DNA of 35,198 nucleotides from a virus (lineage: Duplodnaviria > Heunggongvirae > Uroviricota > Caudoviricetes): the IMG/VR virus record IMGVR_UViG_2548876963_000010. The stretch is one strand, 5' to 3'. The stretch's first letter is position 1, and the number at the start of each line of letters is the position of its first letter. Under the pieces are notes generated by a model. It was not told the DNA's origin and made no database searches. It worked only from the letters and a program-made list of their open reading frames with translations. Positions 1,829 through 34,682 of the stretch are shown here, one piece after another. The translations under genes and the position numbers were made by a program.

Positions 1829-4483
1829 TTATCGTTGAAAAACCCAACACTTCACCGTCGCCGGGCGGCGCGGTGCGGCAGGGTAACGGCGGTTAAATTC
1901 AGCGTTGATGCCGCTGTTAACCGTTCTGACTTCAATAAACTTGTGGGTACGGCTGGTTTTTAGCACTCGCTTCAAATCGCTGATCGGCGGGATCTGCTGG
2001 CGGCGCTCGGTAGCCAGTTGAATAAAGTGGTTAAGGTTAACGGCGATAAGCTGTTCATCGCGCGAGTGGTTGAGCTGTGGTTCGTCGTCGCCATCGAGGA
2101 AGTCGAAAATATCCCAGAACTCCTGCACCAGAGGATGGTCGGCGCTGATGGCCTGTTGGCGCTCCAGACTGAGGCGGATAAACATTTCTCTGGTCGCCTG
2201 TAGCTGCTCTTCCGTGACCGGAATAACCAGCGCCAGCGCGTCGAGCAACGCCATAAGCTGGGCGTGGTTTTTAATGATGCGGATATGGCGAATATCTGGG
2301 TGGGAGTGAAGCTGCTGCTCATATAGCGGGATCTGCCGGTTAACGCACCCCAGCACGGCCTGTTCTGCCAGCGCTGCTTTCAGCATAAAGCCAGAAAGCT
2401 GTTCCACCGGCAGGCGTTCGAGCTGCTCGGCGGCGACCTTGGTCTGGGTATTCTGACCGCTGCGGTCGGTGTACAGGTGAATAATACGTTCCAGCACCGG
2501 GTTAGAGGCGCTGACGTCGGCGTTTTGCGCAATTACAATCGCGCCCCGGAACGGCGGTTCATAGGTCTCGTTACCGCTGTTACGCAGACCGCGAGAACGT
2601 ACCGACCGCCCGTTGTAGGCGGTTTTCAGCTCTTCCCAATCAAAGCCGCGCTGTTTTGCACCCTCCTGATTACGGTCACCCTCGATCAGCACTACCGGCA
2701 TATTCGCCACCTGCGCAAAGTTGCGCGCGCGGGCGGCCAGCGTTGATTTAGACGGATCGAAACCTTCATAGTCGCGTCGGCCCAACAGTTTCCAGAGGAA
2801 CTCTATCAGCGTGGTTTTACCGCTGCCGGGTTCGCCGACGATTTCCAGAAACGGAAAGCTCTTATGCTTGTCGCGGATCTGTTCGGCAAACATCGTCCCA
2901 AACCAGAACGCCAGCGCCACAAACCCCTTTGCGCCAAACGCCTGCCAGAGTAGCTGGGGCCACTGGCTGTCCATCTGTTTTAAATTGTCGTTCAGCGTCA
3001 GGCTGACCGACTGGTTCAGGCTTTTAAGGCTGAGTTTGCCCATGTCGAAGAAGTCTTCTTCGTTGAGTGCGTACAGCCGACCATCGCGAACGGCCAGATC
3101 GTTGAACACGTAAGCGCGGTATTCTTTGCTATAGCCGATAAAATCGGTGGTCTGGACGGTTTTGATTTTGGGAAGTTGCTTGAGCAGCAGCTTATCTAAC
3201 TGCTGACTAGTGCCAGTAAAGATGCCGCCCTGTGCGATATGCAGCAGGCGCTTTTTGAATTCTGAGCCGCTGGAAAGTTGGGAGCCGGTGAAGGTGTTTT
3301 TTATCGGCGGCGTGTCGTCCGGGAAGTTAATGCGAAAGTAATACCAGCTTTCGTCGGTGATGGTGTTGGCCTGATAGTAGAGGGCGGTCGGGTAGCAGTT
3401 GGCGATCTCCACCACGGCGGACGACTCTTTCAGCGCCTTCTGTTTCAGCTCTTCTTCGCTCAGGTCGTCATTAGAGAATGAGATACTTTCATGCACCCGC
3501 ATATAGCGGTCAATATCCAGCTTGAACCAGAACAGGCGGCTGTCAAACTCGAAGTGGAACTCTTTACGCTCTGTCTGTTCGTGCATCAGCAGGGCTTTGG
3601 CGGCGGGAGAGGTGGCGATCAGCAGAGAGCCGTAGTAGTGGTATTTCTTCACTAGCTCTGGGTTAAGCCGGTCGCGCTGGTGCAAATCGTTCCAGTCCAG
3701 CTTGCTGCGGGAATGCGGCGTCTGTGCGGCGGCTGCGCTCCAGCCTTCGTCCCGGCTGCGCTTTACCCATCGCCGGGTATAGCTCATGCCCGCCTTGTCG
3801 TTATCCAGCGCCCAGACCAGTAAAGGGCGCTTTTTATCCACGAACAGAGCGGCCAGTTGACTTAACGCCTGCGCCGGATAGTTGTTGCAGGTCATCAGGG
3901 AAACGGCGGCGATGCCGTGGTGATGCAAGGCTATGGCGTCAAAAATGCCTTCAACCAGCCAGATCTCCTGCTGTTCTTCCAGCTTCAGCGTTGGCAATTG
4001 CCACCATAGCCCGCTGTAAGCGCCGTGAAAGTTGGCTTTGCGATCGCCGAAACGCTGTGGGCGGTCAACGATTCGCTCCCACCACACGCCGTCAGCCAGC
4101 GGGAAACGCACGGTGGCCGAGCCGATATCGCGCCGTGCGTCGTAGTAGTTCTCTTGAGCGTAACAGTCACGGATCAGCGAAAGGTCAAAGCCGCGCATCT
4201 CGCGCAGGTAGGCATCGGCGGCGGCCTGTGGGTTTTCCGGGGTTGGGGGATATCTGTCTGACCAGCTTTCAAATAGATCCGGGTACACCTCTTTGATATG
4301 GATTTCGGCATTGCATTTATTCAGGCGACCGCAGCGCAGTACCCACGGGCTGATGGCGTTGGTGTACAGCTCTTTTTTCTGGCAGTCCGGGCAGACGCCC
4401 TGCCGCAGCCAGTCGCCCTGTTCTTTAAAGGAAAAATCGGCTAGCAGTCGCCGCGTAATTTCCTGATGAAGTTGTGGTTGCAT
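1829..4483 (-). CDS. Primase-helicase replication protein (P4 alpha-like)
   Basis: 884 aa; N-terminal zinc-finger CPDCQKK...CGRLNKC, Toprim-like acidic motifs (WLVEGIFDAIAL, ALDNDKAG), C-terminal Walker A GEPGSGKT and Walker B-like VVLIEGD. Confidence 0.85.
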   Translation of the reverse strand: MQPQLHQEITRRLLADFSFKEQGDWLRQGVCPDCQKKELYTNAISPWVLRCGRLNKCNAEIHIKEVYPDLFESWSDRYPPTPENPQAAADAYLREMRGFDLSLIRDCYAQENYYDARRDIGSATVRFPLADGVWWERIVDRPQRFGDRKANFHGAYSGLWWQLPTLKLEEQQEIWLVEGIFDAIALHHHGIAAVSLMTCNNYPAQALSQLAALFVDKKRPLLVWALDNDKAGMSYTRRWVKRSRDEGWSAAAAQTPHSRSKLDWNDLHQRDRLNPELVKKYHYYGSLLIATSPAAKALLMHEQTERKEFHFEFDSRLFWFKLDIDRYMRVHESISFSNDDLSEEELKQKALKESSAVVEIANCYPTALYYQANTITDESWYYFRINFPDDTPPIKNTFTGSQLSSGSEFKKRLLHIAQGGIFTGTSQQLDKLLLKQLPKIKTVQTTDFIGYSKEYRAYVFNDLAVRDGRLYALNEEDFFDMGKLSLKSLNQSVSLTLNDNLKQMDSQWPQLLWQAFGAKGFVALAFWFGTMFAEQIRDKHKSFPFLEIVGEPGSGKTTLIEFLWKLLGRRDYEGFDPSKSTLAARARNFAQVANMPVVLIEGDRNQEGAKQRGFDWEELKTAYNGRSVRSRGLRNSGNETYEPPFRGAIVIAQNADVSASNPVLERIIHLYTDRSGQNTQTKVAAEQLERLPVEQLSGFMLKAALAEQAVLGCVNRQIPLYEQQLHSHPDIRHIRIIKNHAQLMALLDALALVIPVTEEQLQATREMFIRLSLERQQAISADHPLVQEFWDIFDFLDGDDEPQLNHSRDEQLIAVNLNHFIQLATERRQQIPPISDLKRVLKTSRTHKFIEVRTVNSGINAEFNRRYPAAPRRPATVKCWVFQR

Positions 4484-4571
4484 TGCCAGTACCTTTATTC
4501 AGGTAATACTTACCCGTCGCATAGACACGTTGTTTATGCGTTGTGGTTGTGAGTCTTTTATTTACTGAGCG

Positions 4572-4802
4572 TTACGCGATTTTCTGCTTTTGCAGAAATT
4601 GCCCGCGTGTGGATAGCGGTATGTGTATCTTAGGATTCGGGCAACCGCTGGGTACTACCGTTCCCATCACGGTCTCCATCGCGATAAATGAAAACGAACA
4701 GTTAACGTTCTTGCACTGGTAATAGAGCTTACGTACCAGCGGTGACATATATTCGCTGCTGCGAATTATCGCCTTACCGTCGCAGTGTGGGCATTTCATC
4801 AT
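4572..4802 (-). CDS. ogr: Ogr/Delta-family zinc-finger late transcription activator
   Basis: MMKCPHCDGKA...YYQCKNVNCSFSF matches the C-x2-C...C-x4-C Ogr zinc-finger pattern (P2 Ogr has CPLCQH...HQCQNVNCSATF); strong RBS TAAGGAGA 6 nt upstream of ATG at 4802; the listed ORF start at 4820 is a GTG inside the RBS. Confidence 0.85.
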   Translation of the reverse strand: MMKCPHCDGKAIIRSSEYMSPLVRKLYYQCKNVNCSFSFIAMETVMGTVVPSGCPNPKIHIPLSTRGQFLQKQKIA

Positions 4803-4838
4803 GTCCGATCTCCTTACCACTTTTAACTAACTGAAACA

Positions 4839-5045
4839 CTAACGCTTTTCGTTAACGGACTGACGAAATAGTGTGATGCCGTTCAAAAAAATGATTCTTG
4901 CCATGCTGGACATCGAACGGTTCTGCTCCAGCGCTAATGCTTCCAGTTCCGCGATTTCAGCGGGGAGCAGACGCATTGCCACCGGTTTGTTCGACATCAC
5001 CCCGCGGGGTGCTCGTGAGCGTAAGACGTTCTCATTTGTTTTCAT
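4839..5045 (-). CDS. Small ribbon-helix-helix-like protein, putative Cox-like early regulator
   Basis: 68 aa ORF divergent from XRE gene; segment VAMRLLPAEIAELEALALEQNRSMSSMARIIFLNGI has beta-strand/helix/helix pattern of Arc/CopG family; start uncertain (5045 or internal Met at ~4997). Confidence 0.5.
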   Translation of the reverse strand: MKTNENVLRSRAPRGVMSNKPVAMRLLPAEIAELEALALEQNRSMSSMARIIFLNGITLFRQSVNEKR

Positions 5046-5125
5046 GGTGGTATATTGTGGTTATTAACATTACACAATCTATAATTCCCTCAACTGAGTG
5101 AATTGTCAATGGTAATTATATCCAA

Positions 5126-5464
5126 ATGAAAGAATTTGGCATCCGTTTGAAGGAAGAACGTATCCGACTTGGACTTGATCAAGACGGCTTTGGACAACTT
5201 GGGGGCGTGAAGAAAAACGCACAAAGCAACTATGAGAATGGGTTGCGTAAGCCGGACAGTGACTATCTTGCTGGCATAGCGGCAGCGGGAGTTGATGTTC
5301 TGTATGTTCTAACAGGCAACCGCACGCCTGTAGTTACGTTGTCCAGTAAAGAGAGTGTGTTGGTGGAAAACTATCGTTCTGCTACGCCAGAACACCAGTC
5401 CACCCTTGACACGGTTAGCGCTGCGCTTGCGCAACCGGGAGTAGGGAAAGCAGCTAAGGGATAA
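5126..5464 (+). CDS. XRE-family helix-turn-helix regulator, putative immunity repressor (C-like)
   Basis: 112 aa; N-terminal HTH-like region with QSNYENGLRKPDSDYLAGIAAAGVDVLYVLTG; divergent arrangement with RHH gene across an 80-bp AT-rich switch region. Confidence 0.7.
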   Translation: MKEFGIRLKEERIRLGLDQDGFGQLGGVKKNAQSNYENGLRKPDSDYLAGIAAAGVDVLYVLTGNRTPVVTLSSKESVLVENYRSATPEHQSTLDTVSAALAQPGVGKAAKG

Positions 5465-5504
5465 CGAGTAGAATGAATTTGGTTATTGTCTGTATGGAGG
5501 CAAA

Positions 5505-6077
5505 ATGAAGTTGAATAATCTGGTTGCTCTTTACAGGAACATGACAGAGCAAAAATTGGATAGGGTTAAATTCCCATACAGACACAATAATTTACATTTT
5601 GATGTATTTTTCTTTATTGATGGAAAACCGTTTGAGCTTCTTTTCGGAGCATTAGGCGCTAATCTTTGCTTTCGTCTAAAAGTCGAGAAGGGATTCGTCA
5701 TAAATCCTAATCTGGGAAGTGAGACTTATAAAGAATTATGCAAGGCTCTAGGTTTGAAATATGACCCTGCCAATCCATTTAGAACAAGTAAGTTTTTTGA
5801 AGATTTTGATGGGAAAATCCCTCCATCGGTTACTGTTAAGAATAAGGCAAAATATACTGATATTGCTGTGCATGTCAGGGATGTTGAAGAAGCAGACAGA
5901 ATATATTTCTGTGGATGGAAAAACAACAATGAAGAAAAGAGTCATGTTACTGAAGATAATTTAAAGAAAACGAAAGAGTTTTTAGGGTATCAGGCTTTTC
6001 TTGTTTGTAAGGAAAAGAATATTAGCAGTAGATGGACTGATTTAGAAAATAAAGCGAAAGATTTTTATTTACCATAG
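5505..6077 (+). CDS. Hypothetical protein (190 aa), first gene of AT-rich cargo cassette
   Basis: ORF with GGAGG RBS 8 nt upstream; markedly AT-rich codon usage compared with flanking phage genes; no motif recognised. Confidence 0.6.
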   Translation: MKLNNLVALYRNMTEQKLDRVKFPYRHNNLHFDVFFFIDGKPFELLFGALGANLCFRLKVEKGFVINPNLGSETYKELCKALGLKYDPANPFRTSKFFEDFDGKIPPSVTVKNKAKYTDIAVHVRDVEEADRIYFCGWKNNNEEKSHVTEDNLKKTKEFLGYQAFLVCKEKNISSRWTDLENKAKDFYLP

Positions 6078-6091
6078 GATTGTGAGGTTAT

Positions 6092-7240
6092 ATGTCTGAT
6101 ATTTCATTAGGGTGCGTGGTTGTTCATAGGTTGATAAAAGAGCAACATAAAGATTTCGATCACTCAAAACCATATAGTCGCCGTGATACGGTTCTTGACC
6201 GAAATAATGAAATCGTAATTAAACTAGTGTCCAGTATAGCCGCATTGTATGGTAAAAAATCTAATAGCTCGCATTATGGTATATTTAATTTAGATGAAAC
6301 ACGTAGGGGGCCTTTTCCAGCGGCATTTGATAAATATCGGAATGATACATCCAAGAAGTTAGACGATGAATTGTTTATAGGATTATCAAAAAATGTTATG
6401 CATCAGTTATATATTGAGGCAAAGGATCGACCTGCTGCATCAGGAGGATTACTTCTTTTTGCTGATTATATCAGTAAATCCGTGCGTTACTTTCTTATTG
6501 CAATGATTAAGCAAAAGGAAGGTATAGTTATTAGTGATAAATTAGAACCAAAGGAGTTAGAGCATCTTGATCTGGCAAAACTAAATCAGGCGGCACGAAT
6601 AAACTATGATTTGTATGATAAATATATTTCCGCTGATGAGAATGAAAGACAGGATGTTAATTATTTAAGTTTTGTTAGTCCCAGTTCTAACCAGACAACT
6701 TCAGGGTATTTCATTACTGCCTTAGGTTGTGATAAAGGTAATACATCAACTAAAGCTACGAGTAATTTAATTAATGAATCTTTTAACTTCTTCAGAAATC
6801 ATCAAGAATTAAAGGATAATGCCCGTAAATTTAAAAATGAAATTATTGAGTATTTATTCGATTGTTCTGAGAATAACATTTCAGCTAAGCTCTCTGTTGT
6901 TAGTGAGATGGCAGCGAAGCATATGGTTAATTTAGAAGATGACATTAAAGATAAATTGTCAGAAGAATTATATGCTCATTTGAATAGTGAAAGTATTCGT
7001 GTGCCTGTGGAATTTAGGGTAAGCAAATCAGTAGTTAAGAAAAACAGAAATATTAAATATACAAGTGATAATGTTAATTTTGAGTTTAAATCTAGTTTAC
7101 TAGGCAATACGCTTGATAATGAGATATGCTATAATAAGAAAACTGGACATTTAACTTTTACTCGGATTACTCCTGAGAAAAAAAGTGAAATAGCTCAATT
7201 GCTTGATGAGTTAATAAAAGAAAGAAATAGCGAAAAATAA
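6092..7240 (+). CDS. YejK/NdpA-like (nucleoid-associated protein family) protein, 382 aa
   Basis: N-terminal VVVHRLIKEQHK (cf. E. coli YejK ALHQLIKRDEQ, recalled from memory), SIAALYGKKSNSSHYGIF (cf. ELHRVYSAKNKAYGLF) and ASGGLLLFADYISKSVRYFLIAMI (cf. [24 protein letters not shown]); RBS GTGAGG upstream. Confidence 0.6.
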   Translation: MSDISLGCVVVHRLIKEQHKDFDHSKPYSRRDTVLDRNNEIVIKLVSSIAALYGKKSNSSHYGIFNLDETRRGPFPAAFDKYRNDTSKKLDDELFIGLSKNVMHQLYIEAKDRPAASGGLLLFADYISKSVRYFLIAMIKQKEGIVISDKLEPKELEHLDLAKLNQAARINYDLYDKYISADENERQDVNYLSFVSPSSNQTTSGYFITALGCDKGNTSTKATSNLINESFNFFRNHQELKDNARKFKNEIIEYLFDCSENNISAKLSVVSEMAAKHMVNLEDDIKDKLSEELYAHLNSESIRVPVEFRVSKSVVKKNRNIKYTSDNVNFEFKSSLLGNTLDNEICYNKKTGHLTFTRITPEKKSEIAQLLDELIKERNSEK

Positions 7241-7251
7241 GGTTGCTTAAT

Positions 7252-8508
7252 ATGTCATGTTTTGAAACGGTTGTTGAGCTTTTCAGATATGTAGGGCGTC
7301 CTAAATTTGATGCTATTAATAATCGTTTTTCAGCAACTATTTCTTATGATGCTCATATATATGAACTCTTAGTTTCTTTGCAACCTCATACCGCGTGGGG
7401 AGAAATTGAAGAGATTGTCATTGATGATGTGGATATAGATGTTGATGATAGCCTTCCCGCTAAAGGAACATCAATAACACTGACAATCTCTATATCAACT
7501 GGAGCCAGTGAGTCATTTTTTATCGATATTAAAGATCTAATTCAAAAGTCTCCGATGTTAAATAGAGGTATTTTAAGAAAGTCTTTTTACTTGGTTGAGG
7601 AAGATTTTTATTTTAATGAAGGAATGGTTGAGGGATTAGCAAAAATACCAGAACTATCTGTTTTAAAAAATCTTTGTGATTTTATTTTATGTCTATCAAA
7701 AGTTGCACACTACAGCAATAGTAAAAGTGATGATGTATGCCATAAGTTAGTTTTCTTGAAAAATACTAATGCTAAGTCATTACCTTTAATTATTGAAACT
7801 AATGTTGATTATTCACTTCTTTTAACAGGTATTAAGGATTTAAAAATCATCGAATCTTTTTCTGATGAAAAAAAAGCTATAACGGATGATAATTATTTTG
7901 AGCGAAAAGGGATTTTCATTAATACGGTGGTCGATTTTCTTGAATCAATCGATGTAAAGAAACAGTTTCATTTTTTATTCTGTGAGTGGGATGAATTTCT
8001 AAAACTATACCATAATAACCTCGGTGTATATCTTAGTGGTTTTTCATTTCATAAAGTAAGAAAGGAAGTGGCAGAGGCAGAAGCTAATTTAGCTGAGCGT
8101 TTTTCAAAAATAATGTCAGACATGATAGCTAAGCTTTTAGGTATTCCTGTTTCTTTGGTTGCTACTTTTGGCATGATAAAATTAAATACCCTGCCGGAAA
8201 TGTTAGTGGTTTTTTTAGGTGTATTGCTCACGTCGATAATTATGTTTTTTATTGTAAGAAGTCAATACACACAGTTTAGGATGATTTGTGATGCTAAAGA
8301 TATTATATTTTCCCCATTAGTGAAAAAATCTGTAGGTTATACAGAAGATTTGAAAAAATTAGTATGCAATGCAAAGGATAATTTAGACAAAAATCAGGTC
8401 ATGTTAAATCGTTACCTTCTTTTCTTTCAATGCTTATGCTGGATTCCGACAGCCTTAGGTGGTGGAATGATCTTAATGGCTATTATGGTTCATTTAGGAT
8501 TACTATAA
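7252..8508 (+). CDS. Hypothetical protein (418 aa) with C-terminal transmembrane helices
   Basis: ATG at 7252 (listed ORF starts at a TTG at 7243); hydrophobic stretches IPVSLVATFGMIKL...MLVVFLGVLLTSIIMFFIV and YLLFFQCLCWIPTALGGGMILMAIMVHLGLL at the C-terminus; AT-rich. Confidence 0.6.
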   Translation: MSCFETVVELFRYVGRPKFDAINNRFSATISYDAHIYELLVSLQPHTAWGEIEEIVIDDVDIDVDDSLPAKGTSITLTISISTGASESFFIDIKDLIQKSPMLNRGILRKSFYLVEEDFYFNEGMVEGLAKIPELSVLKNLCDFILCLSKVAHYSNSKSDDVCHKLVFLKNTNAKSLPLIIETNVDYSLLLTGIKDLKIIESFSDEKKAITDDNYFERKGIFINTVVDFLESIDVKKQFHFLFCEWDEFLKLYHNNLGVYLSGFSFHKVRKEVAEAEANLAERFSKIMSDMIAKLLGIPVSLVATFGMIKLNTLPEMLVVFLGVLLTSIIMFFIVRSQYTQFRMICDAKDIIFSPLVKKSVGYTEDLKKLVCNAKDNLDKNQVMLNRYLLFFQCLCWIPTALGGGMILMAIMVHLGLL

Positions 8509-9603
8509 ACTTAATTCCATTTCTAATGCGGTGACATAACCAGTACCGCCATCCAACGTATGCACGCACCGCGTAATCACCCACGCGGTGCCGTCAATCT
8601 CCGCCTTAAACCCCTTCACCTGCACCGGTAGTTCCGGGAACAAATCGGGCCGTCCACGCGCAAGGTTCAGGCTGAACGTTGCCGCGCCGCGCTGTAGTTG
8701 CTCCCACGCGCTTTTTGCCGCTCTGTAGGCGTTATTTTTGTTGGCATAGGTGTGGCGCAGCACCTTGATATTTCCCTCTTCGCCGACCATCACGTTATCG
8801 GCGTTGAATGAGGCGTCTGACGGCGGCGATTCTGTTGGTTGCGTTTGCGGAAGGTTTTTCCGTGTCTTGCGCTTCACGTCAGTTGACTGCTTTTTAGCCT
8901 GCCGCGTATCCAGCCAGTAGGCCGTTACGCCGGTATAGGCTTCCCTGTCCGCGATGCTGAACCGGTGGCTGTCGCCGTCCTCGCGGTTAATGGTTGCGAC
9001 CGGCAGCGGCTTGCCGCTGGCGCTTTTACCGGAACCTGTCGGCATCAGCAGCAGAGCATCATTTTTCACGCAGGCGATAGCGCCGTGCATTTGCGCCAGC
9101 CGGGTTAGGAAGGATGCATCAGACTCGTTAGTCTGGTCAACGTGCTCAATGGCGATCCCAGCCAGCTCGCCGCTGACGGTTGATTCCAGCTTATGACGTG
9201 CCGCCACGGTTTGCACAATCGCGCCCAGCGTCACATCATGGTAGCTCTGTTCCCGTTTAACGTTCAGCGAATCGCGGAAATCGGCGCTGCGGGCGCGGAG
9301 GCTGAGTACGTCCGGTGCGCCGCTGTGCTCCAGTTCGTCCACTGTGAAGACATTCTGGTGCATCACGCCGTCACCCTTCCAGCCCAGAGAAACCGTTAGC
9401 TTTTCGCCCTTTGCCGGAAACGCCAGCAGGCCGTCGCTGTCGTCCAGTTCGAGCTGCAGTTCGTCGGCCTCAAAGCCCCGGTTGTCGGTGATACGCAGGC
9501 TGATTAAGCGGTTGTCCAGATTCCGCGTAATGTCCTTACCGTTCAGCACCACGCTGTACTCCGGCTGCGGCTGGGCGTTTAAGAGTGCGTTTAACATCGT
9601 CAT
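8503..9603 (-). CDS. D: Tail protein D (P2 gpD-like)
   Basis: 366 aa; position and order at the end of FI-FII-E-T-U-D tail operon; ATGA overlap with upstream U stop. Confidence 0.85.
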   Translation of the reverse strand: MTMLNALLNAQPQPEYSVVLNGKDITRNLDNRLISLRITDNRGFEADELQLELDDSDGLLAFPAKGEKLTVSLGWKGDGVMHQNVFTVDELEHSGAPDVLSLRARSADFRDSLNVKREQSYHDVTLGAIVQTVAARHKLESTVSGELAGIAIEHVDQTNESDASFLTRLAQMHGAIACVKNDALLLMPTGSGKSASGKPLPVATINREDGDSHRFSIADREAYTGVTAYWLDTRQAKKQSTDVKRKTRKNLPQTQPTESPPSDASFNADNVMVGEEGNIKVLRHTYANKNNAYRAAKSAWEQLQRGAATFSLNLARGRPDLFPELPVQVKGFKAEIDGTAWVITRCVHTLDGGTGYVTALEMELSL

Positions 9604-25846: not shown

Positions 25847-26014
25847 TCAAGTGAAAAGGCTAAAACAGATCAGTACCAACTTCGTCTTGCTCATGAATTT
25901 AGAAAGCAGCTTGAAGAACAGGCTCGTAAAGATGGAGATACCTCTCTCGCAACATGGATAAAACGCGTTTTGCGTAAGGAACTTCAGTCACGAGGTATTG
26001 AACCCAAAGGATAA
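25844..26014 (+). CDS. Small ribbon-helix-helix (Arc/MetJ-like) DNA-binding protein, 56 aa
   Basis: Not in supplied ORF track (below its length cutoff); MSSEKAKTDQYQLRLAHEFRKQLEEQARKDGDTSLATWIKRVLRKELQSRGIEPKG: beta-strand then two helices as in Arc. Confidence 0.6.
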   Translation: MSSEKAKTDQYQLRLAHEFRKQLEEQARKDGDTSLATWIKRVLRKELQSRGIEPKG

Positions 26015-26115
26015 TTACGGAGATATCAAGCAGCGCTAAGAAGTTAGGATTATTTGTTCAGCCCAGATTAGTCGATATGCACTGATTAACTTAAACATTG
26101 TGTGTAGGAGGTGTT

Positions 26116-26769
26116 GTGGATATTGAATTTTTTCTTAAAGAGCGCACAAGATTCGTTACTTATTTCTATGAAACGGCTGCTGCACCATTTGTTAACATCA
26201 TGAATGATATTGAGAATGAAGTGGAACCTTATATTCAGCCGTATGGTGAGAGTGATGAACCAGCTTTTTTAGATGAATGGTTAGATGCAAAGTCGGGATT
26301 AGAAACCTGTGGGCACCATGCATTATCGATGCTTTCGTCTTCTCTTCAGTTGTACCTGAAGGCGTGGGTAGATCGCTTAGGATATCATAGCGTGAAATCT
26401 GATATAAATTTCAAGAAGGGTTGGTTTAATGGCTATCGTGAAATTTTCAACAAAATTGAGTTGGAAATGGCAAAATGTCCTGCAAATTTGGAAATAATTG
26501 AACAAATTCCCTTGGTGAGAAATCGTGTCCAGCATCCTGAGGAACTTACCTCAATTAATATTTCTCACTCAAAAAATGACTTGGAAAAATATCCTCGCCC
26601 ATACTTTATTCAGGAGTGTGAGCTACTTTTGGCTTCCGAACAGGAAGAAAAATCGTGGTTATTCCCACCTACAATATCCCCGACTAAAGAGAAAATATTC
26701 GAAGCTATCAGAAATGTTGAAATGCTGTGCTCTTGGTTAGAGTCTGAGTATTGGTCGGCTCTTGACTAA
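26116..26769 (+). CDS. Hypothetical protein (217 aa) with R-x4-H motif, possible HEPN-domain protein
   Basis: GTG start at 26116 with AGGAGG 6 nt upstream (ORF track lists 26098); AT-rich; motif VRNRVQHPEE (R-x4-H). Confidence 0.55.
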   Translation: MDIEFFLKERTRFVTYFYETAAAPFVNIMNDIENEVEPYIQPYGESDEPAFLDEWLDAKSGLETCGHHALSMLSSSLQLYLKAWVDRLGYHSVKSDINFKKGWFNGYREIFNKIELEMAKCPANLEIIEQIPLVRNRVQHPEELTSINISHSKNDLEKYPRPYFIQECELLLASEQEEKSWLFPPTISPTKEKIFEAIRNVEMLCSWLESEYWSALD

Positions 26770-33187: not shown

Positions 33188-33233
33188 CCCCACCAATGAC
33201 CAACTCTCCGTCAGCGCCACCACGCGCCATTCA

Positions 33234-33256
33234 GCCCGCTTCCTGCGGGTTTTTTT
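33234..33256 (+). terminator. Rho-independent terminator after Q
   Basis: CCCGC-ttcct-GCGGG followed by TTTTTTT. Confidence 0.6.
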
Positions 33257-33292
33257 ACGCCTTCTCACCGCCAGAATCTCCAGCCAGCACCG

Positions 33293-33311
33293 CCAGCGCG
33301 CGGTTGTGACC
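33293..33311. other. Candidate cos site (cohesive-end sequence)
   Basis: Reverse complement reads GGCGTGGCGGGGTCACAAC; first 12 nt match the GGCG(A/T)GGCGGGG start of the P2/186 cohesive ends as I recall them. Confidence 0.4.
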
Positions 33312-33510
33312 CCGCCACGCCTGCGCAGTAAATAGATCGCTTTTTTTGCACTGGTGCGTAAGCGTCGGAGCGGGCCATAACGGGAGGGCGTGGTCGGGTT
33401 GCGGGTGCAGCAGAATCATGCGGATTTATGCGCCCTGTGTATGCGCCAGAGACGATCGGGAGGACAATGCCACGATCCTTTCGGTATTTTTGGATCGCCT
33501 GTCGGGAAAA

Positions 33511-33786
33511 GGTAACCTCAGTAATTGGCAGTAAAAATAATGCTTATTCTATTGTTTATAAAAGAGAAATTTGGTTACCCATAAAAGGTAATCTGAGGTA
33601 ACCCAAAAGGTAACCTGTTTTATATTTTCATATAAATCATAATGTTACCAATTAGAAGAGATCACTATTATAAAAGGTAACCTGATTACCCTTTGGTTAC
33701 CAGAAGATTACCTTTCTCTGTTTTTGAAAAATCCTTTTTATTCATTAAGTTATTTTGATTTTTCGTTGCAGGTTACGAAGGTTACC
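33511..33786. repeat. Cluster of GGTAACC/GGTTACC heptamer repeats (consensus AAAGGTAACC) in both orientations
   Basis: Exact heptamers at 33511, 33573, 33597, 33609, 33676, 33694, 33780 plus variants (GGTAATC, GATTACC, GTTACCA, GGTTACG) in ~280 bp of AT-rich non-coding DNA. Confidence 0.8.
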
Positions 33787-34056
33787 TTTTTCCGAAGCCC
33801 CCACGGACTTTGGTATATATAGATAGGTTAAAAAGTAGCCATTATGTTTGCCTGCTATTTACTTCCCATTCTTCCACTGGCCAGCATGTTAATATGCCCG
33901 GTAATGATAACTCGTTGCCGTTGGGTTACTTTCTTCTGTGGACGGTAAAACTGACGGTAAATTGGGTAATGTGTCTCTATTTAGACTATGAAAATCAAGT
34001 AATTAAAGTGATTGTATATAATCGAGTGGGAATGATTTGACCCTGCACTATGAATG

Positions 34057-34089
34057 AACAAAACCCTCTGTTACTACAGAGGGTTTTTT
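34057..34089. terminator. Bidirectional rho-independent terminator
   Basis: AACAAAA-CCCTCTG-ttacta-CAGAGGG-TTTTTT; downstream of minus-strand gene ending at 34128. Confidence 0.75.
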
Positions 34090-34127
34090 ATACTCACGAA
34101 TCATAGGATTGAAGTTACTAACATCGA

Positions 34128-34667
34128 TTAATTAAACCAGCTGTCCGATTTGTTCTCTTCTGCTTTGCCCACGCTTTTCATCAGATCTCGACCGCCCTCA
34201 GTCATATTCCTGTTTGCGTCAGCTTCAGATTGCACCACATCGGTTTGCGCAGCTTTGTGCTTCAGTTCCTGATCGATAAATTCGTTTTCTCGCTTAACGC
34301 GGGCTTCTTCTTTCGCCAGCGCCAGTTTTTGCTTCTGAATCTCTAAGCTACGTAGCTCATCTTCATAACTTTGATCGCGTTTTTTGTCCGCAGTGGCTTC
34401 GGCGTCCAGTTTATCCTGACGAGCTTTCTTATTCGCTGCTGCCGTTGCCGCTCTTTTATTAGCCGCGGCCTGGGCGTTTGCGCGACGTTGCTTCTCTTGC
34501 TGGATTTCCCTGTTGCGCTCCGCGACCCATTCGTCATGCTGCCTTTGCTCTTCATTTTTACCTTGCTGTTCCGCTTCTGCGACAGCCGAGAGTTGATCCT
34601 GCAATGATGAGGCGATAGCCGGATAGCTTAAGGAGGCTAAGATGGCGCAAAGAAAAACTTTCTTCAT
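34128..34667 (-). CDS. Secreted Lys/Ala/Glu-rich coiled-coil protein (likely host chromosomal)
   Basis: 179 aa with N-terminal signal peptide (MKKVFLCAILASLSYPAIASS); outside prophage. Confidence 0.65.
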   Translation of the reverse strand: MKKVFLCAILASLSYPAIASSLQDQLSAVAEAEQQGKNEEQRQHDEWVAERNREIQQEKQRRANAQAAANKRAATAAANKKARQDKLDAEATADKKRDQSYEDELRSLEIQKQKLALAKEEARVKRENEFIDQELKHKAAQTDVVQSEADANRNMTEGGRDLMKSVGKAEENKSDSWFN

Positions 34668-34682
34668 GACTCCTCCTGATTA

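Follow-up and report, generated by a model that had tools for sequence, protein, structure and literature searches.

The cassette and its setting

The DNA analysed here is a 35,198-nt stretch of a Caudoviricetes genome (IMG/VR record IMGVR_UViG_2548876963_000010; the whole stretch is referred to as the window), and taken as a whole it is a P2-family prophage of Escherichia coli. Our subject is a cassette of three genes at positions 5505-8508, whose products are called p1, p2 and p3 in gene order. An initial annotation, made from the sequence alone, had described these genes as three co-oriented, closely spaced open reading frames (ORFs) forming an AT-rich cargo block flanked by an XRE repressor gene on one side and tail gene D on the other, and had proposed that together they constitute an undescribed anti-phage system. 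Two systems from the literature of 2026 are used for comparison. DS-1 (working ID D390), one of the 42 validated transcription units of DefensePredictor (Science 2026), consists of WP_000355468.1 (DS-1A, a 391-aa YejK-domain protein) followed by WP_000150292.1 (DS-1B, a 404-aa hypothetical protein) (PMC13092281). PANGU is a two-gene operon, with gaps of <40 bp, that encodes a YejK-like nucleoid-associated protein (NAP; PagA) and an effector (PagB); in type I the NAP is paired with a GRel toxSAS, and in type II with Pag2B, a protein whose N-terminal domain is acidic ('DNA-mimicking') and whose C-terminal domain is transmembrane (TM) (bioRxiv 10.64898/2026.04.06.716658, April 2026). The genes of the cassette and the two edges of the slot that it occupies are as follows.

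5505-6077, plus strand: gene 1 (module A), DUF6037 family, 190 aa (ORF listing, Pfam)
6092-7240, plus strand: gene 2 (module B), YejK/NA37-like putative sensor resembling PagA and DS-1A, 382 aa (Pfam, NCBIfam)
7252-8508, plus strand: gene 3 (module B), putative effector resembling DS-1B and Pag2B, 418 aa (NCBIfam, hhalign)
5126-5464, plus strand: XRE/HTH_3 repressor-like gene, left edge of the cargo slot, 112 aa (Pfam HTH_3, E 3e-5; PHROG transcriptional regulator/repressor families)
8503-9603, minus strand: tail gene D (late control D family), right edge of the cargo slot (ORF listing and Prokaryotic Genome Annotation Pipeline, PGAP; Pfam Phage_GPD in a sibling locus)

The layout given in the initial annotation was confirmed with respect to the number, orientation, spacing and protein lengths of the ORFs, their placement between the repressor gene and gene D, and their base composition. 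The G+C content is 0.284-0.348 across 5501-8500 (six consecutive 500-bp segments), compared with approximately 0.57 in the flanks. The adjoining 500-bp segments have 0.466-0.472 on the left and 0.562-0.612 on the right, and the value is approximately 0.55-0.61 over most of the window. A step of this size over 3 kb is no chance fluctuation. Genes 1 and 2 are separated by 14 nt and genes 2 and 3 by 11 nt, a ribosome-binding site (GTGAGG) lies 5' of the gene 2 ATG, and the stop codons of gene 3 and of the convergent gene D overlap. The gene 3 ORF would encode 421 aa if translated from a TTG at 7243; we prefer the ATG at 7252, which gives 418 aa, because it is the PGAP start and agrees with the N-termini of the family.

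The repressor-like gene is divergent from a leftward operon that encodes a small, weakly ribbon-helix-helix-like protein, an Ogr/Delta-like zinc-finger protein and a toprim primase. A promoter-like site lies 5' of the repressor-like gene at 5029-5056. A scan for promoters and terminators found no terminator-like site between the repressor-like gene and gene 1, and no convincing internal plus-strand promoter or terminator in the cassette, weak minus-strand matches in the AT-rich sequence being disregarded. Transcription probably reads through from the repressor-like gene into the cargo, and on this layout the cargo genes would be co-transcribed. Only 2 of 5,426 complete E. coli genomes contain near-identical copies of the cassette (99.4-99.8%), and in the one of these two whose wider context was examined the prophage is integrated beside guaA. 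A tRNA scan found no tRNA genes in the window.

Pairing and exchange of the cassette genes

At all 24 independent loci compared, an NA37-like ORF lies directly 5' of the p3 homolog, a protein of some 410 aa, on the same strand. These loci comprise the window, L003, L005 and L006, L017 and L018, and 18 loci from a genome-wide search, for which a tighter p3-family alignment was used, the 60-sequence alignment being too diverse. The 18 genome loci come from Xenorhabdus, Providencia, Proteus, Pantoea, Halomonadaceae, Pseudomonas, Vibrionaceae, Pseudoalteromonas, and metagenome-assembled genomes (MAGs) of Lewinella and Moraniibacteriota, and thus span the Gammaproteobacteria, one Bacteroidota MAG and one MAG of the candidate phyla radiation. 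In each of the 18 the spacing between NAP and effector genes is -23 to +39 nt, and a hidden Markov model (HMM) of DUF6037 found no match in any of them (L019-L036). Likewise, p3 homologs that are 33-68% identical and have an NA37 gene directly 5', with no DUF6037, were found in a Serratia prophage, a lambdoid Q/lysis slot, a D5-primase island and Klebsiella phage P7641. A more distant homolog (24% identical) in an Acinetobacter phage has an annotated ndpA gene directly 5', and a p1 query gave no DUF6037 match there. A megablast search against the phage collection gave no match, and tblastn did reach the Klebsiella and Acinetobacter phages. DUF6037 is therefore missing from 23 of the 24 pair loci, that is, from all but the window. 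The two members of the pair also diverge together: the pairwise identities of p2 and p3 co-vary with r = 0.88 over 190 locus pairs (20 loci; Mantel p ~5e-4).

At the Serratia marcescens locus (AP021873.1, L003:6866-7999), the NA37 gene is called as two fragments (233 and 105 aa) that tblastn aligns to p2 over its full length, and this may be a frameshifted sensor gene.

DUF6037, for its part, occurs without the NAP-effector pair in five contexts. Its homologs are solitary, opposite-strand 'moron' genes in the tail region of a Ralstonia prophage and in lambdoid holin/Q regions, and they are also found in Yersinia-type and other prophages. The boundaries of exchange were mapped by comparison of the window with two sibling loci, L002 and L015.

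5438-8534, no strand: segment swapped relative to sibling L002 (blastn; backbone 97-98% identical to 5437 and again from 8535)
6077-8548, no strand: segment swapped relative to sibling L015 (blastn; ~85-86% identity continuous over 4400-6076, resuming at 8549)

The exchange relative to L002 takes in all three genes and, at its two ends, the final codons of the repressor gene and of gene D. In L015, homology spans DUF6037 and breaks at the 3' end of gene 1, indicating that the exchanged unit is the NAP and effector pair only. Because this junction maps to 6076, the pair is exchanged independently of DUF6037. Thus, the cassette is two stacked, independently exchangeable cargo modules, not one three-gene system. 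Outside this prophage lineage, which accounts for 2 of 5,426 complete E. coli genomes, the trio that had been taken for a unit was not seen, and it does not recur in unrelated contexts.

The cargo at this position varies among siblings. In L002 (E. coli L725, NZ_CP036202.1; 6394-8480), the slot holds a 362-aa NA37 protein, only ~20% identical to p2, and a 333-aa RelA/SpoT-domain protein that also matches PADLOC PDC-S33. This NA37 plus RelA/SpoT toxSAS arrangement is the type I PANGU architecture. In the more distant sibling L015 (Logan ERR3479927 contig; 6001-9414), a DUF6037 protein that is 89% identical to p1 is followed by a ThsB-like TIR protein, a caspase-like peptidase, a PDC-M11A candidate (E 2e-126) and an ASCH protein. 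The cassette is foreign cargo in a variable slot, and this slot between the XRE repressor gene and gene D is a defence hotspot of this P2-family E. coli prophage. Since siblings swap type-I-like (toxSAS) and type-II-like (membrane) versions at one position, the idea of 'one sensor, many effectors' becomes testable in near-isogenic backgrounds. The flanks of 17 diverse pair loci likewise abound in genes of prophage type (antiterminator Q, DUF968, S24 repressors, lysis genes and integrases), and they also contain restriction-modification and Septu components. At the Xenorhabdus hominickii locus (L019:148-867), approximately 700 bp 5' of the pair and on the opposite strand, a gene encodes a protein with a Tad2-like (Thoeris anti-defence) domain and DUF7823.

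The three proteins and other features of the window

The product of gene 2 matches Pfam NA37 (PF04245) with an E value of 5.7e-46, the match starting at residue 10. Against the NCBIfam YejK equivalog (NF001557) it scores 108.8 bits with a cut-off of 341, which places it below the level of the housekeeping YejK. Against NCBIfam DS1_1_antiphage (NF053868) it gives an E value of 1.2e-22 and 80.5 bits (cut-off 330), from profile position 58 onwards, and BLASTP aligns it to DS-1A with 26% identity over 214 aa (E 4e-9). The profile of the p2 family matches the solved YejK chain 9be2_A over its full length, including both domains (E 1.2e-32).

The product of gene 3 has no match to any Pfam family. 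It matches PHROG 5023 (E 3e-52) and NCBIfam DS1_2_antiphage (NF053869; E 1.5e-19, 70.4 bits, cut-off 315), and BLASTP aligns it to DS-1B with 26% identity over 68 aa (E 2e-7). At the family level, hhalign relates p3 to DS-1B with a probability of 96.4% over 261 columns, and an HMM of 140 p3-family members finds DS-1B with an E value of 1.3e-33. An exhaustive HMMER scan returned 994 family representatives at 50% identity. This count overturned our earlier picture of p3 as a very rare protein, which came from a word-indexed search that had found nine clusters and to which a profile search had added none. An AlphaFold2 (AF2) model of p3 (mean predicted local distance difference test, pLDDT, 84) has a mixed strand/helix alpha/beta N-domain followed by very long helices, and the following parts were delimited.

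7252-7986, plus strand: effector N-terminal alpha/beta domain, candidate NAP-binding ('DNA-mimic'-like) region, residues 1-245, acidic
8122-8268, plus strand: effector hydrophobic helical hairpin, predicted transmembrane, residues ~291-339, Kyte-Doolittle 19-residue maximum 2.94
8428-8505, plus strand: effector C-terminal hydrophobic helix, residues ~393-418, Kyte-Doolittle maximum 1.92, in most homologs

Residues 1-245, the presumed cytosolic domain, have a net charge of -14 in p3, and all 20 family members compared fall between -8 and -24; the C-terminal part of p3 is neutral to basic. A hairpin-like hydrophobic peak, with values of at least 1.94, was seen in all 20 of these homologs. By analogy with the Pag2B data of the PANGU preprint, the N-domain of p3 may bind the NAP.

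We also considered p3 as a divalent-cation channel of the CorA/ZntB/Mrs2 family, which is defined by the CorA fold and by a conserved GMN motif closing the first TM helix, and rejected this assignment: the 'FGM' of p3 is not conserved across the family alignment. Some copies of the effector gene are disrupted. In the second cassette-bearing genome, E. coli 24A16CRGN010 (NZ_CM148325.1, L037:2453-3708), the gene is split into two ORFs (209 and 193 aa), and a truncated 249-aa form (P0005) has 47 member sequences, compared with 32 in the full-length cluster. These split and truncated copies could be inactivated alleles or homopolymer sequencing errors.

Judged by sequence, the window pair belongs to the DS-1 superfamily, having the same gene order and homology in both proteins. 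By the same measure it is not a DS-1 equivalog and forms a divergent subfamily. The system cannot be called undescribed, since its effector falls in the DS-1B superfamily and its architecture is that of type II PANGU. The initial annotation had found no known match because PADLOC-DB 2.0 (2023) has no model for such a system and the relevant literature dates from 2026.

The product of gene 1, previously listed as unknown, belongs to a family that can be named. It matches Pfam DUF6037 (PF19503) over residues 1-186 of 190 (E 2.5e-31; 109.7 bits, gathering threshold 28.8). Its AF2 model is confident (pLDDT 92, predicted template modelling score 0.86), and the predicted fold has no match in the two structure libraries searched. 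Invariant residues of the family include D39, N152, K155, T156, two cysteines and a C-terminal N-I-S-S-x-W motif spanning N172 to W177. A literature search for DUF6037 found no paper. A DefensePredictor score for p1 is not independent of context, because the model reportedly also takes neighbouring genes as input. In the DefensePredictor tables, the exact protein, WP_024247617.1, appears as 'predicted novel defense gene' with a mean log-odds of 8.0, outside the tested units (PMC13092281). DUF6037 is thus a confidently folded, orphan-fold protein that recurs in prophage moron slots and is flagged as defensive by a machine-learning model. Module A is an autonomous prophage moron and most likely another lysogen-expressed gene for host benefit or defence. 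A more specific proposal, which we regard as tentative and would not expect to hold, is that DUF6037 is an autonomous single-gene anti-phage or superinfection-exclusion protein of the prophage, with a previously unseen fold, stacked behind the immunity repressor and upstream of the PANGU-like pair. If that were true, the cassette would bear two defences independent of each other, and one of the two would represent a wholly uncharacterised kind.

Elsewhere in the window, a second AT-rich island lies in the late region at 25844-26769 (G+C 0.38-0.43) and contains a 223-aa ORF (26098-26769, plus strand) with no match in Pfam, NCBIfam or PADLOC. In a relative in E. coli GMF054, a Doc-family toxin gene is found at the corresponding place, and 25844-26769 looks like a second variable cargo slot. 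A further AT-rich segment, 33501-34000 (G+C 0.35), lies 3' of the portal gene, and the region 33188-35198 has no ORF of at least 90 aa within that segment. Beyond it, both on the minus strand, lie a DUF5384 gene (34128-34667) and a glycine-zipper/TraT-like gene (34683-35198). At this place GMF054 has two DUF262 genes instead, so the right end differs between hosts. The same GMF054 prophage (L016:15369-16127) has an annotated DNA adenine methylase gene within its tail-gene block.

Interpretation and comparison with known systems

The best explanation, to which we assign a probability of roughly 0.7, is that the cassette is two stacked modules and that module B (6092-8508) is a NAP-sensor abortive-infection pair of the DS-1 superfamily with type II PANGU architecture. 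The observations made here that carry it are the strict pairing of the two genes, their co-divergence, the homology to DS-1A and DS-1B, the combination of an acidic N-domain with TM segments, and the hotspot context. Functional support comes from relatives, namely phage restriction by DS-1 (plating values below) and the following experiments on PANGU. Both genes are required and neither is toxic alone; PANGU-Ecu protection looks abortive, with growth arrest at high multiplicity of infection (MOI), and T4 escapes it through mutations in denA (EndoII). Pag1A binds long DNA, Pag2A fused to green fluorescent protein moves out of the nucleoid into the cytoplasm upon T4 infection, and Pag2A binds the Pag2B N-domain with a dissociation constant of 19 nM (10.64898/2026.04.06.716658). 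The suggestion that a nucleoid-binding component and a membrane protein form an abortive-infection module agrees with these experiments on relatives, and the defence reading of the initial annotation is largely right.

By analogy, the YejK-like protein, as a dimer, would be kept on chromosomal DNA in a healthy lysogen. Degradation of the host genome by an infecting phage would free it, and the freed protein would then bind the acidic N-domain of the membrane-anchored effector. This binding would switch on the C-terminal helices of the effector, probably through oligomerisation into a leak or pore, and the infected cell would die or arrest ahead of phage release. We infer that this divergent pair works as its relatives do, that its membrane helices have the role given to them here, and that it is expressed in the lysogen from the repressor promoter.

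Several points weigh against this interpretation. The anti-phage phenotype, the release from the nucleoid and the binding of a NAP to an acidic domain are all data on relatives, and DNA binding by p2 itself is likewise only presumed from its resemblance to YejK. The YejK residues whose contact with DNA has experimental support are R173, R176 and K177 in the N-domain and R276, R280 and K284 in the C-domain (PMC11229321). In an alignment of 15 effector-paired NAPs, the first three correspond to S, Q and T in p2 and are basic in 7%, 27% and 0% of the p2 family, and the latter three positions, partly kept, are basic in 73%, 47% and 7%. The window pair differs from DS-1 in having only ~26% identity to it and scores of approximately one quarter of the NCBIfam equivalog cut-offs, and PADLOC-DB 2.0, also suggested as a check, gave no match for any of the three proteins. 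The match to type II PANGU is one of architecture, not of a sequence comparison with Pag2A and Pag2B, and the authors of the preprint leave open how Pag2B is activated and how it acts (10.64898/2026.04.06.716658). The phage spectra of the two known systems also differ. PANGU-Ecu restricts T4 and Bas34, not T1 or T5 (10.64898/2026.04.06.716658). For DS-1, the rows of Table S7 examined give reductions in plating (-log efficiency of plating) of 7.6 for Bas1, 2.7 for Bas26, 1.7 for Bas3, 1.7 for T3, 1.0 for T5 and 0.9 for T7, with no T4 row among the rows examined (PMC13092281). On these rows the DS-1 spectrum (Bas1, Bas3, Bas26, T3) is not that of PANGU-Ecu, and triggers may differ within the NAP and TM class; the main text of that paper gives no mechanism for DS-1 (PMC13092281). 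Finally, disrupted copies of the effector gene circulate.

That last observation is what would be expected of a costly gene, and it fits a different view in which the pair serves to stabilise the prophage as an addiction module of toxin-antitoxin type, with a membrane toxin, an NA37 antidote and no dedicated anti-phage role. The alleles in 24A16CRGN010 and P0005, the bicistronic layout, the co-evolving partners, the location of the pair on mobile elements and a membrane protein able to harm the cell are all compatible with addiction. Yet DS-1 was scored by phage restriction, and the slot is otherwise occupied by defence-type cargo, so that we consider an addiction module unlikely. The proposal from which the analysis began would make the three genes a single, previously undescribed anti-phage system; in an integrated system of this kind DUF6037 would be an indispensable sensor or regulator for the pair. 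This proposal draws on the tight spacing (14 and 11 nt), the common orientation and AT-rich composition, the replacement of all three genes together relative to L002, and the conserved hypothetical gene found 5' of the NAP gene in Cluster 4 of the PANGU preprint (10.64898/2026.04.06.716658). We nevertheless give it a small chance: the pair lacks DUF6037 at every other locus, including the HMM-negative L019-L036; Ralstonia, Yersinia-type and other prophages carry DUF6037 as a solitary gene; in L015 the cargo behind it is unrelated, with the homology break exactly at the 3' end of DUF6037; and both DS-1 and PANGU function as two-gene systems.

The NA37 protein could instead be a nucleoid protein of a mobile element, with a role in regulating or silencing genes of the prophage or the host, the membrane protein being unrelated or accessory. 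Horizontally acquired NdpA-like regulators are documented (PMC8565334, PMC6606824), with NdpA2 on the Pseudomonas integrative and conjugative element PAPI-1 and plasmid NAPs as precedents, and the cassette is AT-rich, as is DNA targeted by xenogeneic silencers. This account leaves unexplained the invariant, co-diverging partnership with one membrane protein family, the homology of the p3 family to DS-1B and the interchangeability with defence cargo, and we hold it to be very improbable. Superinfection exclusion at the envelope, in which the membrane protein would constitutively block entry of phage DNA, neither killing the cell nor sensing genome damage, is in keeping with the predicted membrane anchoring of the effector, and prophage cargo next to the immunity region often encodes exclusion functions, as in P2 and lambda. 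Such proteins, however, normally need no cytosolic DNA-binding partner. In addition, PANGU-Ecu is abortive at high MOI and is escaped through denA, an intracellular nuclease gene (10.64898/2026.04.06.716658), and envelope exclusion appears to us the most improbable of these accounts.

If the NAP-sensor reading of module B is correct, the window offers a native example of a newly described kind of immunity in a lysogen-expressed prophage hotspot. It also points to an annotation gap, in that a subfamily comprising approximately 1,000 clusters at 50% identity escapes PADLOC-DB 2.0 and scores under the NCBIfam DS-1 cut-offs. What is left as novel is DUF6037, the swap of type I and type II versions at one slot, and the loss of half of the DNA-contact residues of YejK in the sensor lineage. 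An effector-linked NAP branch without those residues bears on how the sensor reads the integrity of the genome.

In its setting, the cassette resembles the lysogenic-conversion defence genes of P2 (old, tin and fun/Z) and the P2/P4 hotspots, being foreign AT-rich cargo in a fixed prophage slot with alternative cargos in relatives. It differs in that the slot lies between the XRE repressor gene and gene D, and, unlike P2, the early region has a toprim primase and an Ogr-like gene beside the switch. We know of no sequence relationship between the cassette genes and old, tin or fun. Compared with chromosomal YejK/NdpA, the nucleoid-associated DNA clamp of E. coli (PDB 9be2), p2 aligns over its full length and partly keeps the basic patch of the C-domain, whereas the basic cluster of the N-domain is lost and the p2 gene is always operon-linked to an effector and carried on mobile DNA.

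With DS-1, the window pair shares E. coli as its host and a two-gene operon in which a YejK/NA37-like gene is followed by a gene for a protein of ~400 aa with an acidic N-terminal part and a hydrophobic C-terminus. DS-1A bears an N-terminal CxxC...CxxC zinc-ribbon extension that p2 does not have, and the C-terminus of DS-1B is less hydrophobic than that of p3. The type II PANGU text, for its part, does not describe a prophage-hotspot setting or an upstream DUF6037 gene. In its bicistronic NAP and effector order, 11-nt gap, acidic N-domain and C-terminal TM segments of the effector, and occurrence in E. coli in defence and mobile-element contexts, module B is like type II PANGU.

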